Below are positions 51,913-55,608 of a stretch of 64,000 nt of DNA, in pieces. Positions within the stretch are counted from its first letter, which is position 1. Each line of letters begins with the position of its first letter. Position numbers and translations under genes: made by a program. The notes beneath the pieces were generated by a model. The model was given only the letters and a program-made list of their open reading frames with translations. It made no database searches and was not told the DNA's origin. Source of the stretch: Bdellovibrionota bacterium (lineage in GTDB: Bacteria > Bdellovibrionota > UBA2428); NCBI GenBank assembly GCA_964202055.1, contig CAXNGS010000001.1:224186-288185 (forward strand), read 5' to 3'.

Positions 51913-52644
51913 TTGGCTCGACTGTTGATTTGCATCCCGACCTACAACGAAGCTGACAATGTCAGACCTTTGGCTGAAGCCGTTTTTGCTAACACCAGTG
52001 AAAATGTAGAAATTCTTTTCATCGATGACGGCAGCCCCGACGGAACTGGAAAATTACTCGACGTGATGACCATGGAAAACCATCGAATCCATGTGATTCA
52101 TCGCAAGGGAAAATTGGGCTTGGCCACTGCTTATATCCAGGGTTTTCAGTGGGGCATGGCTCGTGGCTATGACTGGATAGCGGAAATGGATTGTGATTTT
52201 TCTCACGACCCCAAGCATCTGATAGAAGTCGAAAAATTAATCAAGGCTGATCAATATGATGTGCTTTGTGGAAGCCGGTACGTACCCGGTGGCGGAGTTT
52301 CGAATTGGTCCCGGCGACGCTTGCTTTTGTCTAAGTCAGGCTCGGTTTATTCACGCATGATTTTGGGTTTCCCGCTTCATGATTGGACTGGCGGCTTTAA
52401 TTTTTGGCGAGTCAAAACCTTGGAGCCACTGAAAATCGCTACTGTGAAAAGCAAAGGTTATGCCTTTCAGATTGAATTGAAGTATCGGGCTTTGATACAG
52501 ACCTTGCGGGTTTTTGAATTTCCCATTGTTTTCCAAGAACGCAGAGCCGGAGTCTCCAAGATGAGCGGCTCGATCGTTAAGGAGGCCGTGATCGGGGTTC
52601 TGAACTTGCGGTTAGCTCAACGTGCTGGCAAACTATTTGAGTGA
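51913..52644 (+). CDS. GT2 polyprenol-monophosphate mannose/glycosyl synthase (Dpm1-like)
   Basis: ICIPTYNEADNV, FIDDGSPDGT, EMDCDFSHDP. TTG start. Confidence 0.85.
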   Translation: MARLLICIPTYNEADNVRPLAEAVFANTSENVEILFIDDGSPDGTGKLLDVMTMENHRIHVIHRKGKLGLATAYIQGFQWGMARGYDWIAEMDCDFSHDPKHLIEVEKLIKADQYDVLCGSRYVPGGGVSNWSRRRLLLSKSGSVYSRMILGFPLHDWTGGFNFWRVKTLEPLKIATVKSKGYAFQIELKYRALIQTLRVFEFPIVFQERRAGVSKMSGSIVKEAVIGVLNLRLAQRAGKLFE

Positions 52645-53138
52645 AGATTTATCTTTGGATCTTGGCCGCACTTTTTGTTTTCGAAAGACTTTTCCTCGGA
52701 CGAATACTTGATTCCCTAAGTGGCGCCAATCCTTCAGTCATTTTTCAAAGTATCCCCTATATTTTTGAAGCGTTGTTGGTGGCAGCTTTCATTGGTCTGC
52801 ATCGAAAAAAATTACATTTTCGATGGAGGCTTGATTGGCAGTGGGCTTTTTTTGCCTCTCTTAATTTAATTTGCGGAGCCGCCATTTTTCTCTTGGGTGA
52901 AAAAATGGGGATGATGATTCCCTTTGATTTTGAGTCCGGTTTATTTGCGCTGCTGCTGATTGTGATCGCGCCGATTCTAGAAGAGTTCTTGTTTCGCGGA
53001 ATTTTGTGGGAGGTTTCACGCTCACTTTTTCATTCGGTGTTTTTGACACTCTTCACAACTTCTATTCTTTTTTCGCTGGATCATTTTTCAGCCTACTTCG
53101 GTGTTAAGGCGATTTTTCAAACTTTTGTTTTGTATTAA
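52641..53138 (+). CDS. CPBP (CAAX/Abi) intramembrane glutamic protease, truncated by an in-frame TAA
   Basis: Motif 1 APILEEFLFRGILW and motif 2 LFSLDHF are present. Motif 3 (HMFFN) lies after the TAA at 53136-53138, in the same reading frame. Confidence 0.7.
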   Translation: MKIYLWILAALFVFERLFLGRILDSLSGANPSVIFQSIPYIFEALLVAAFIGLHRKKLHFRWRLDWQWAFFASLNLICGAAIFLLGEKMGMMIPFDFESGLFALLLIVIAPILEEFLFRGILWEVSRSLFHSVFLTLFTTSILFSLDHFSAYFGVKAIFQTFVLY

Positions 53139-53213
53139 ACTTTTTACACATTAGTATTTGGACTGATTTGGGGATACGCCCGCTTAAAGCAAAACAGTAT
53201 TTTTTCGGCGGTT

Positions 53214-54425
53214 TTGCTGCACATGTTTTTTAATTTTGGCTTTTACGCCGCCGCGAAAACTTATCCGCACACCACAAATCAACAAATGGATCAACAAGTT
53301 GAAAGCGCTGATATGGGCGCCGACGAAGACATGCCCGAGCTTCTTTCGGAAACGGGCGAATGGAACGAGTTTAATCAGGCGCTCGAAAAAATTCGAGAGA
53401 TCAATCCGCCGCCTACTGAACCCAAAGTTGCCAAAACCGTCCCGCGAATTTTAATCGCCGATATGGCGGTGAGTGATGTGGGAATTTTTAAGCGCGACAA
53501 AAGCGTTCAAATCTTGATACCTGATTCTAGTAATGGCGCCGCTGATCTGGGCAAAAACTGTGGTGCTAATTTGAAAAAAATTGAAGATTTTTTCTCGGCC
53601 TTGCTCGCCAGCCGAGCGCCTCCTTTTGAATTGGACGAGCCCACCGTTCGCAATTTGGAGCAATCGCTTTGGAAAACTCATGGCTATCATGTTTTAGGTT
53701 TGGTTCAGGCCGGTTTGCGCAAGAGCCAGGTGATCATGCTTCCTATGCATCCGCCTCCAAGTGTTTTGGATGGAATTAGTGACCATAAAAAATACATCGC
53801 TTCCGTGGTGTTGCCGGAAATGGTTTCACTTTATCGAATGGTCCGCGAGCAGCTGCCGGATTTAGTACTCGTTGCAACAAGTGATACCTTTGAAGAAAAC
53901 GAACGTGATTTGCGTACCGGCGGTTATCAGCCCAATGACGCAAAAATAGCCGCCGAAGAAATCATGGGGGCTTTAATTGGCGCTTGGACCACACTGATTT
54001 CTGACTTCCCGCAAGTGCGCTTTGTGGTGCCGGTTGGTAATGGTGGCGCCGATAGCATTGGCGATCGGCTGGAATCACGAATGCTTCGTCATGGGCCGAT
54101 TCCGGCAGTCTTGCCCTTTGCGAATTTATTGCGAGTGGCGTCGTTTGAAAAACGCAAAGATTCTTGTCTGTCCGCATTTTCCAATTTTGGCGTGGAAGGC
54201 AGTGATGTCGCTGCCAAAGGCCGCGAAGTCGAATCTTGGGCACCCTGTGGCGAGCATCCATCAGTTCGCTTGAGCGGAACTTCACAAGCATCGGCTAAAG
54301 TTACAAATTATTTAGCGTCGAGTTTAGAAAATGGAATTTCAATTGAAGACGCGCTCAAGAGTTTTCAAAAGGAATCTTGTTTAGAAGATCGAGTGAGCCT
54401 GGCAGCGCGGATGCCTGAGCCTTAA
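53214..54425 (+). CDS. S8 subtilisin-like serine peptidase domain protein (its N-terminus is the last CPBP helix)
   Basis: Asp region RILIADMAVSD, His THGYHVLGLV, Asn VPVGNGGADS, Ser RLSGTSQASAKV. The frame is open back to 53139, directly after the CPBP stop codon. Confidence 0.7.
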   Translation: MLHMFFNFGFYAAAKTYPHTTNQQMDQQVESADMGADEDMPELLSETGEWNEFNQALEKIREINPPPTEPKVAKTVPRILIADMAVSDVGIFKRDKSVQILIPDSSNGAADLGKNCGANLKKIEDFFSALLASRAPPFELDEPTVRNLEQSLWKTHGYHVLGLVQAGLRKSQVIMLPMHPPPSVLDGISDHKKYIASVVLPEMVSLYRMVREQLPDLVLVATSDTFEENERDLRTGGYQPNDAKIAAEEIMGALIGAWTTLISDFPQVRFVVPVGNGGADSIGDRLESRMLRHGPIPAVLPFANLLRVASFEKRKDSCLSAFSNFGVEGSDVAAKGREVESWAPCGEHPSVRLSGTSQASAKVTNYLASSLENGISIEDALKSFQKESCLEDRVSLAARMPEP

Positions 54426-54447
54426 AATTTCTGCTAGGAACAAATTT

Positions 54448-55577
54448 ATGAAAAAATATTTTCAAACTTTACGACAATGCTGTTTAAGTTTCCTTGGGCT
54501 AATTGTTGGTCTTTTGATGGCGGCTTTGATTTTGGAGGTGGTGGTACGTTTTAGCCGTCTAGATTTGCGTCTACTTCGGTATAATTTATTTTATTCTCCC
54601 TATGATAACGAAGTTTATCAGAAATCAGACGATCCCCATCTGATGTATTCGCCGAAACCAAATCGACAGTTTCGTTTCAGTTCAGGAATGCACCCTTTAG
54701 ACAAGACTCCTTACCCTAGAATTGTGACTATTAATCAATTTGGTTTTAGATCACCCGAATGGCCTGAAAAAAAAGCCCCTGGAATTTTTCGGATTTCTTT
54801 TTTGGTGGATCAACAACTTATGGAATTCATGTTACCGATTCGAATACTTATCCTGCAAAGATTCAGACTTTATTAAATAAAAAGCACCCAAAACGTTTTG
54901 AGGTTTGGAATGGGGGGATTACAGCTTCTGTGCTTTCCCAGAGCGCGTCGTATGCTGAATATGCTATTAAAAGATTTGATCCTGATTTGATTGTCATTCA
55001 AGATTTTGTGAATCAGGGGCGACGACCTTTTTTAAGTAGAGATTTTTCAGTTCCTGACTTTGACCGGGAATCTCTTGAAAATTATTTTAATCGGGACCCA
55101 AATTTATATATTGAAAATATTCCATTGTTTCATTTTGAAAACCCAAGATTGGTAGCGATCCATAATAAGTTAGTTGTTGCACTGGCGTCTTACCGGATGA
55201 TCCAGATTCTTATAAATCATCTGGCGATTCATTTTCAATTTCAATTTCCAAATCATCTGACTAGCTGCTCAGGGGATATAGAAAAATGTCGTAGAATCTT
55301 TAAAAAATTTTATGAGCCTGGCCAAAAAATTAATCACAAATCTTTGGCAAATTTAGTAGCTAAGTATCCAAAAATGAATTTTTTGTTATTAGATCCGATA
55401 CATTCTCATTATTGTGGTCAAGATAATCCAAGTTTTTTAGGGGTTCCGGTGCTCTCGATTTGTTTAAAGGATAAAGGACCAGAGTATTACGTCGCGCATC
55501 CACCAGCTTATGTGTTTGGTGGCTATGCAGAGCAATTCGTAGAATATCTTCAGAAACATAGAAATTTTGATAAATAA
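54448..55577 (+). pseudogene. membrane-anchored SGNH/GDSL-type hydrolase, disrupted by a -1 frameshift at a T-run
   Basis: Frame 1 reads ...KKAPGIFRISFL, then nonsense to a stop at 54876. Frame 3 from about 54801 reads FGGSTTYGIHVTDSNTYPAKIQTLL...VWNGGITASVLSQ (SGNH blocks I-II) and continues into the 54930 ORF. The junction is the T6 run at 54798-54803. Confidence 0.65.
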
Positions 55578-55608
55578 AAAAAATATCGTTTAAGAGATTT
55601 GATTAAAA

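Follow-up and report, generated by a model that had tools for sequence, protein, structure and literature searches.

This report concerns a 64,000-nucleotide stretch of the genome of a member of the Bdellovibrionota (NCBI GenBank assembly GCA_964202055.1, contig CAXNGS010000001.1, positions 224,186 to 288,185 of the forward strand), referred to here as the window, and within it a gene that joins a CPBP-type intramembrane protease to a subtilase-like domain of family S8 and that is broken by a single TAA codon. A first-pass annotation of the window, made from the DNA sequence alone, had drawn attention to a reading frame that carries the motifs EEFLFR and SLDH, stops, and then runs on into a set of subtilase motifs, and its positions and motifs were reproduced exactly as claimed. 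The frame begins with GTG at 52641, is interrupted by TAA at 53136-53138 and is then open for 428 codons, as far as a second TAA at 54423-54425; at the stop frequency of uniform random sequence, an open run of this length would have a chance probability of (61/64)^428, or roughly 1e-9. The third CPBP motif, said to be supplied beyond the stop, is found there as HMFFN (53220-53234), and so are all the elements of the S8 catalytic set, i.e., IAD (D274), THGYHV (H347), GNGG (N467) and SGTSQA (S548). The features of the gene are listed below, with amino acid residues numbered in the read-through translation and the predicted transmembrane helices designated TM1 to TM7; the pLDDT is the per-residue confidence score of AlphaFold2.

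52641-54425, + strand: whole CPBP-linker-S8 gene, 594 sense codons, broken at codon 166
52641-53135, + strand: N-terminal fragment of 165 amino acids, with CPBP TM1-TM5 and the start of TM6 (Pfam Rce1-like match of 34 bits, profile positions 6-65)
52980-52997, + strand: CPBP motif 1, EEFLFR (E114, E115, R119), in TM4, read in the sequence; all 8 aligned sequences agree in the E, E and R columns
53070-53084, + strand: CPBP motif 2, FSLDH (F144...H148), in TM5; F, S and H are invariant in the 8 sequences
53136-53138, + strand: premature TAA at codon 166, inside TM6; Gln in relatives
53139-53258, + strand: rest of TM6 and TM7, with motif 3 HMFFN (H194...N198, 53220-53234); Pfam Rce1-like positions 61-92, 24 bits; H and N are invariant
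53259-53417, + strand: acidic linker, of this length only in the source genus; other genera are gapped here in the alignment, and the pLDDT is <50 in the full-length model
53418-54422, + strand: divergent S8 subtilase-like domain, recognised by alignments, a profile search of the PDB, AlphaFold2 and Foldseek
53460-53462, 53679-53681, 54039-54041 and 54282-54284, + strand: S8 residues D274, H347, oxyanion N467 and S548, respectively, placed by alignments
Within the S8 domain, + strand: cysteines C307, C509, C536 and C580
54423-54425, + strand: natural stop of the gene, also TAA; the same stop ends the conspecific intact allele
51913-52644, + strand: upstream GT2 glycosyltransferase gene (Pfam Glycos_transf_2, 104.7 bits), whose TGA overlaps the GTG start (GTGA)

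Ancestry and Distribution of the CPBP-S8 Gene

The CPBP-S8 combination is ancestrally a single gene. A six-frame search was made of 40 related genomes, among which G000 designates the genome that carries the stop and G001 a species of the same genus. G001 contains an uninterrupted open frame of 602 amino acids with 60% identity over residues 4-593 (same-genus orthologue, 587 amino acids), and both halves also occur in one open frame of 535-592 amino acids in six genomes from 4 other genera of the same family (G007, G005, G011, G002, G014 and G009), which brings the range for the 7 family relatives to 535-602 amino acids. In the alignment, the column of codon 166 is Gln in all 7 of these relatives, and in G001, where the codon itself was checked, it is CAA.

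The first-pass annotation had proposed an ancestral fusion of roughly 595 amino acids, and the proposal is borne out by an intact conspecific protein of 594 amino acids (described below), by the same-genus orthologue and by the single frames in other genera. It had suggested that orthologues be compared for a sense codon at 53136-53138, and all the relatives have one. It had also named two observations that would count against a fusion: two separate genes in relatives and a lack of conservation between 53139 and 53213. The relatives that carry the fusion have one gene, and the stretch in question is conserved: it reads TFYTLVFGLIWGYARLKQNSIFSAV where the same-genus species has TFYTLLFGLLWGYSRLKTNSVLAAV, and the 8 aligned sequences share invariant positions occupied by Y, T, G and R.

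The fusion gene was found in 8 of 20 species genomes of the family, representing 5 of its 10 genera, and the internal stop only in G000. No CPBP-S8 fusion was found in 181 other genomes sampled from the phylum, where the CPBP proteins seen were of the stand-alone type only (~205-240 amino acids). A hidden Markov model search of 1.84 billion representative proteins yielded about ten full-length fusion clusters (504-569 amino acids), a dozen stand-alone S8-like relatives (300-346 amino acids) and >100 stand-alone CPBP proteins. The matches listed by word-indexed protein searches, which were limited to 8000 candidates, were the window's own open reading frame (ORF), the G001 orthologue and protein P0012; a metagenome scan with CPBP-derived patterns returned CPBP-only relatives, and these patterns are not informative on fusions in that material. 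The Bacteriovoracaceae (Bdellovibrionota) have a small gene family of which this locus is a member. The architecture had been called unrecognised in the first-pass annotation. It is indeed rare, and no description of a CPBP-S8 fusion was found in the literature searched, but it is not unrecorded, as the NCBI orthologue P0003 already bears the public annotation PF02517+PF00082.

A Near-identical Intact Allele and the Age of the Stop

The 90%-identity cluster that contains the two ORFs of the window also holds a protein, P0005, of 594 amino acids, with Q at position 166 and identity to the read-through translation at 589 of 594 positions (99%). Further contigs were retrieved by way of the identical GT2 protein of the window, and one of them, contig k141_64486 of ENA assembly ERZ27280191 (L058; 924,683 bp), encodes the intact allele, with CAA as codon 166. 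Over the first 1532 nucleotides of the gene this contig differs from the window at 2 positions, one being the TAA/CAA base and the other a synonymous base, and the strains show 100% identity in each of the three upstream flanking proteins that were compared, namely the response regulator, the alanine dehydrogenase and GT2. The premature stop is therefore one C-to-T transition that converted the conserved Gln166 codon from CAA to TAA, and with so few differences in this part of the gene and none in the flanking proteins the change is strain-specific and very recent. The catalytic residues and the 428 codons past the stop are all intact.

The stop is reproduced in another assembly that was built independently. 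In the Logan assembly of run ERR5863105, all 1785 nucleotides are the same as in the window, with the TAA included, on a contig of 59 kb in which the exact 165-amino-acid product was also called. This agreement argues against an assembler artefact, and we infer that the stop is present in the cells and not only in the reads. The sequence context of the site (TAT TAA ACT) is not a homopolymer.

Toward the 3' end of the gene the two strains part company, as summarised by two features:

54173-54371, + strand: 199-bp patch with ~33 substitutions (roughly 17%, mostly synonymous) relative to the conspecific allele (alignment columns 1533-1731)
54429-55606, + strand: strain-specific cassette of 1.18 kb and low GC content (about 37%), directly downstream, with a gene split into ORFs of 142 and 215 amino acids

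The patch accounts for four amino acid changes (G537S, R543H, Y557F and S560A). It is probably a recombination tract and looks like the edge of an event that exchanged the downstream cassette. Neither of the cassette ORFs (142 and 215 amino acids) has a match in Pfam. The conspecific contig has an unrelated gene of 224 codons at the corresponding slot (L058:6514-7246), and identity between the strains resumes beyond the cassette, at the 3' end of a gene for an addA-like helicase.

The CPBP Module

By its sequence, the N-terminal half is a CPBP/Rce1-type glutamic intramembrane protease with a predicted set of seven transmembrane helices that place EExxxR in TM4, FxxxH in TM5 and HxxxN in TM7. 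The Rce1-like Pfam profile (PF02517) straddles the stop, matching at positions 6-65 before it (34 bits) and 61-92 after it (24.2 bits), and it matches the intact conspecific allele without a break over profile positions 6-92 (59.5 bits); all three scores pass the gathering threshold of 22.4 bits. The motifs EEFLFR (114-119) and FSLDH (144-148) lie in transmembrane helices, and the residues E, E, R, H, H and N are invariant in the 8 aligned sequences. In the full-length AlphaFold2 model, the CPBP half consists of helical segments with a pLDDT of around 80.

The same arrangement of HxxxN in TM7 and EExxxR in TM4 is found in the myxosortase MrtX and in MmRce1, and HxxxN is required for catalysis in the CPBP family (PMC11980579). 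The fusion family resembles these endopeptidases in its seven transmembrane helices, in the placing of these two motifs and in the invariance of its catalytic residues; it differs from them in having a C-terminal subtilase-like domain of 335 amino acids. All the matches to NCBIfam subfamilies were sub-threshold (MrtJ, 29-34 bits against a cut-off of 75; Mrt_core, 17.5-28.8 against 100; MrtS, 20.5-23 against 130), and the CPBP half thus belongs to no named subfamily. Membership among the myxosortases (Mrt_core NF040914; MrtJ NF033192; MrtS, MrtC, MrtP) was rejected on the basis of these curated cut-offs. The ABC transporter permease/CPBP proteins (NF041647) offer a parallel in that a CPBP module is joined to a second module, but their partner is a permease and not a second protease, and the match of the fusion to this family reached 34 bits against a cut-off of 435.

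The S8 Domain

The C-terminal half is a real but very divergent, propeptide-less subtilase domain of about 335 amino acids. The products of the window and of the conspecific allele score 21.1-21.3 bits with the Pfam S8 profile, just below its cut-off of 21.8 bits; the orthologues P0003 (30.8), P0007 (32.4) and P0006 (28.8) lie above it, the stand-alone relatives reach up to 56.3, and P0010 has no Pfam S8 match. The order Asp-His-Ser and the oxyanion Asn are those of S8 enzymes, with D274 in IADM, H347 in HGYHV, N467 in GNGG and S548 in GTSQA. When a profile of ten members was compared with the PDB, thermitase and the AK.1 protease were matched at E 1e-8, with GTSQA aligned on GTSMA, HGyH on HGTH and IADM on ivDtG. 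No I9-type propeptide was found in the S8 half.

Structure prediction points the same way. The AlphaFold2 model of the S8 domain alone (pLDDT 78; predicted template modelling score, pTM, 0.84) has the alpha/beta fold of the subtilisins, and Foldseek returned 196 matches with E <= 0.001, of which the best 50 are all S8 structures (probability 1.0). The best of them is the macrocyclase PatG (4akt; E 1.7e-11, TM-score 0.53), followed by PCSK9, proteinase K, PagA and EpiP. The modelled domain resembles PatG in having extra helical sequence between the catalytic Asp and His, D274 and H347 being 73 residues apart; in subtilisin BPN' this spacing is 32 residues. The likeness to S8 subtilases in general thus extends to the order of the catalytic residues, the oxyanion Asn in GNGG and the predicted fold. 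The domain nonetheless departs from the solved S8 folds in its TM-score of about 0.5, its identity of 15-18%, its tethering to a polytopic membrane protease and the loss of the nucleophile Ser in two clusters of the fusion family.

This last feature deserves comment. The Ser is replaced in the sequence GTAQS of G005/P0006 (L025:3977-5671) and in the sequence GTPQA of P0010, both of which keep Asp, His and Asn as well as all the catalytic residues of the CPBP half. P0006 and P0010 are possibly pseudo-proteases whose S8 domain may do no more than bind. Because the Ser was lost in two fusion clusters, the role of the S8 domain may not always be catalytic, and this weakens any model in which the protein acts as two proteases.

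A further S8-like relative, P0019 (600 amino acids), has a different, unannotated N-terminal region of ~280 amino acids that contains an HExxH-type motif, HERIH; Pfam detects only the S8 domain in this protein, which could represent another two-protease combination or a chance occurrence of the motif.

Predicted Membrane Topology

Basic residues (HRKKLHFRWR, ARLK) cluster in alternate loops of the CPBP half, so that the N-terminus is predicted to lie inside and the end of TM7 outside. The S8 domain would then be located at the periplasmic face of the inner membrane, tethered there by the seven-helix CPBP module. In the members with the shortest linkers, the alignment places the beginning of the S8 domain roughly 20-35 residues after TM7. 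The stand-alone S8-like relatives P0016, P0018, P0023, P0025 and P0027 (300-346 amino acids) start with a signal peptide, a lipobox or a signal anchor, P0018 having a lipoprotein-type signal (LLASC) and P0016 a signal anchor, and these starts also speak for a periplasmic S8 domain. Judged from these N-termini, the S8 clade appears always to be tethered to the membrane, by one of three means: a lipid anchor, a single helix or the CPBP module.

The S8 domain has four conserved Cys residues, the first and third of which are invariant. The second and fourth are kept or lost together, which suggests two disulfides, and the pattern implies that the domain is probably stabilised by them. The conserved Cys residues are a third indication of a periplasmic position.

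Probable Consequences of the Stop and Competing Explanations

The TAA is best explained as an ordinary recent nonsense mutation that knocked out the CPBP-S8 fusion gene in this strain, a reading to which we assign a probability of roughly three in four. The C-to-T change at the Gln166 codon would terminate translation in TM6, to give a 165-amino-acid product that would be without TM7 and the catalytic His and Asn that this helix contributes; HMFFN (194-198) is encoded only past the TAA in the window and is present in P0005 and in all the relatives. Since it ends in TM6 and has no HxxxN, the fragment should be catalytically dead. The S8 part, for its part, has no start that would supply a signal peptide or anchor, and it would therefore have no route to the periplasm. 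Most likely, then, the gene is a fresh pseudogene in this strain, inactivated as a whole.

Several observations weigh against this interpretation. The source genome is a 73.5%-complete metagenome-assembled genome. The Logan contig may come from the same reads as that assembly, with which a read-level artefact or a polymorphism within the sample would remain compatible, and the next gene downstream is also split, which might reflect local decay or lower sequence quality. In addition, internal restart at ATG 53223 could still take place.

The first three of these points bear on the possibility that the TAA arose as an error in sequencing or in the consensus, or represents a variant of the sampled population, such that the cells, or most of them, carry an intact CAA gene. 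Such an explanation would account for a difference of one base, for the existence of an intact and otherwise almost identical allele, and for the preservation of everything past the stop as if the gene were functional, and it gains from the nature of the source assembly and from the disruption of the adjacent gene. It must, however, contend with the presence of the same base in the independent Logan assembly of ERR5863105, where the 59-kb contig is unbroken at the site, and with the non-homopolymeric context of the TAA; substitution errors seldom survive into a short-read consensus. The intact allele, moreover, comes from a strain that can be distinguished by its different downstream gene and by the divergent 199-bp patch, and its existence therefore does not point to a mixture in this sample. 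We regard an error or variant as improbable on balance, though as a possibility to be kept in mind.

Considerably less probable is a split that is tolerated, in which the S8 part would be translated from TTG 53214 or ATG 53223 and would work in the manner of the stand-alone S8 relatives. Gene finders do call a 400-amino-acid ORF from ATG 53223, stand-alone relatives of 300-346 amino acids do exist, and the new N-terminus, MFFNFGFYAAAK, is hydrophobic and has an AxA-like motif at its end. Every stand-alone relative, however, has a genuine signal peptide, lipobox or signal anchor, whereas the 400-amino-acid ORF begins within TM7, where it has only about ten hydrophobic residues, and lacks a basic n-region, and no promoter-like site was found before it (in a comparison with shuffled sequences, the region showed no excess of promoter-like or terminator-like sites). 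The broken gene is a single nucleotide change away from the intact allele, which leaves no time for adaptation, and maturation in the cytoplasm would not be expected of a domain that probably has two disulfides. An exported and folded S8 domain is thus unlikely to arise from the 400-amino-acid ORF.

Finally, read-through or recoding of the TAA (programmed, by a suppressor tRNA or through an altered code), by which the full-length fusion would still be made, has in its favour only the perfectly preserved downstream frame and is very unlikely, because none of the 7 relatives has a stop at codon 166, which is Gln in all of them and in the conspecific allele, as would not be the case at a conserved recoding site, and because the gene and the intact allele both terminate with TAA, which is therefore a stop in this organism; programmed TAA read-through of such a kind is not known to occur in bacteria. 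The shuffled-sequence comparison likewise led us to reject a recoding or regulatory element near the stop. Of the three states that the first-pass annotation had left side by side, the fresh nonsense mutation is consequently favoured over the sequencing error, and the read-through or recoded stop is now very unlikely.

The nonsense mutation, as we see it, is an ordinary case of gene loss at the strain level, and the more interesting part is the rare and unstudied architecture of the gene that it broke. For purposes of annotation, the ORFs of 165 and 400 amino acids should stand as one disrupted gene and not as two proteins.

Possible Function of the Intact Protein

In this architecture a single chain would carry both a glutamic protease of the membrane interior and a subtilase-like domain in the periplasm, and in the genomes searched only one family of predatory bacteria has it. 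With low confidence, we imagine a two-protease machine for membrane-associated proteins of the envelope, in which a first cut would be made outside the membrane and a second one inside it: the subtilase-like domain in the periplasm would bind a substrate tethered to the membrane, or clip it, and the intramembrane cut would then be made by the CPBP domain. Sequential processing of this sort is suggested by the retention of the catalytic residues of both proteases in most members, by the apparently constant tethering of the S8 domain to the membrane and, in the members with the shortest linkers, by the short distance between TM7 and the start of the S8 domain. In eukaryotes, site-1 protease, a membrane-bound S8 subtilase, and then site-2 protease carry out a two-step regulated intramembrane proteolysis, and by pure analogy a subtilase outside the cytoplasm and a protease inside the membrane could work one after the other on a membrane protein here as well. 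The differences are that both would reside on one polypeptide in the present case and that the intramembrane enzyme is a glutamic protease of the CPBP type rather than a zinc site-2 protease.

Another comparison is with the JDVT-CTERM/MrtJ system, in which a CPBP protease is paired with one client, encoded next to it in 16 of 17 cases (Haft, bioRxiv 10.1101/2023.06.07.544157). The likeness would consist in a CPBP protease that is genetically locked to a single partner, in our case by gene fusion, and MrtJ is among the best, though sub-threshold, NCBIfam matches of the fusion. The partner is fused downstream of the CPBP domain, however, and is not a separate client. The S8 tail (…SCLEDRVSLAARMPEP) has a conserved Cys but, unlike sorting signals of the JDVT-CTERM type, no transmembrane helix or Arg cluster, so that a tripartite sorting signal is absent.

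Drawing on both analogies, one might picture the intact protein as a self-contained two-step processor of envelope proteins, or as a sorting enzyme fused to its single client, with the TAA as a natural knockout that exists beside an intact allele; we put this forward as speculation that is much more likely to be wrong than right. Most bacterial CPBP proteins have no known function, and a fused partner domain together with a natural null allele beside an intact one would provide concrete handles on the function of such a protease. If the knockout does segregate in near-isogenic strains, it would offer a ready-made comparison for finding out what the gene does.

Genomic Neighbourhood

Some sources of functional inference were examined and set aside. 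A Rosetta-stone type of co-occurrence between stand-alone CPBP proteins and the S8 clade was rejected, as 3 genomes that have the closest stand-alone CPBP protein are without the S8 clade at E <= 1e-5; the CPBP and S8 modules are therefore not an obligatory pair. A link to genes for bacteriocins or for ribosomally synthesised and post-translationally modified peptides was also rejected, none having been seen in the flanks examined.

The first-pass annotation had described the gene as translationally coupled to the glycosyltransferase gene upstream of it. The GTGA overlap on which that description was based is real, and it recurs in the conspecific contig, but it is not a conserved feature of the family. 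In G001 a spacer of 45 nucleotides separates the GT2 and CPBP-S8 genes (L023:3953-4003), the neighbours of the fusion gene in G007 and G005 are unrelated, and a conserved operon with GT2 was rejected on these grounds; adjacency to GT2 was seen only within the source genus.

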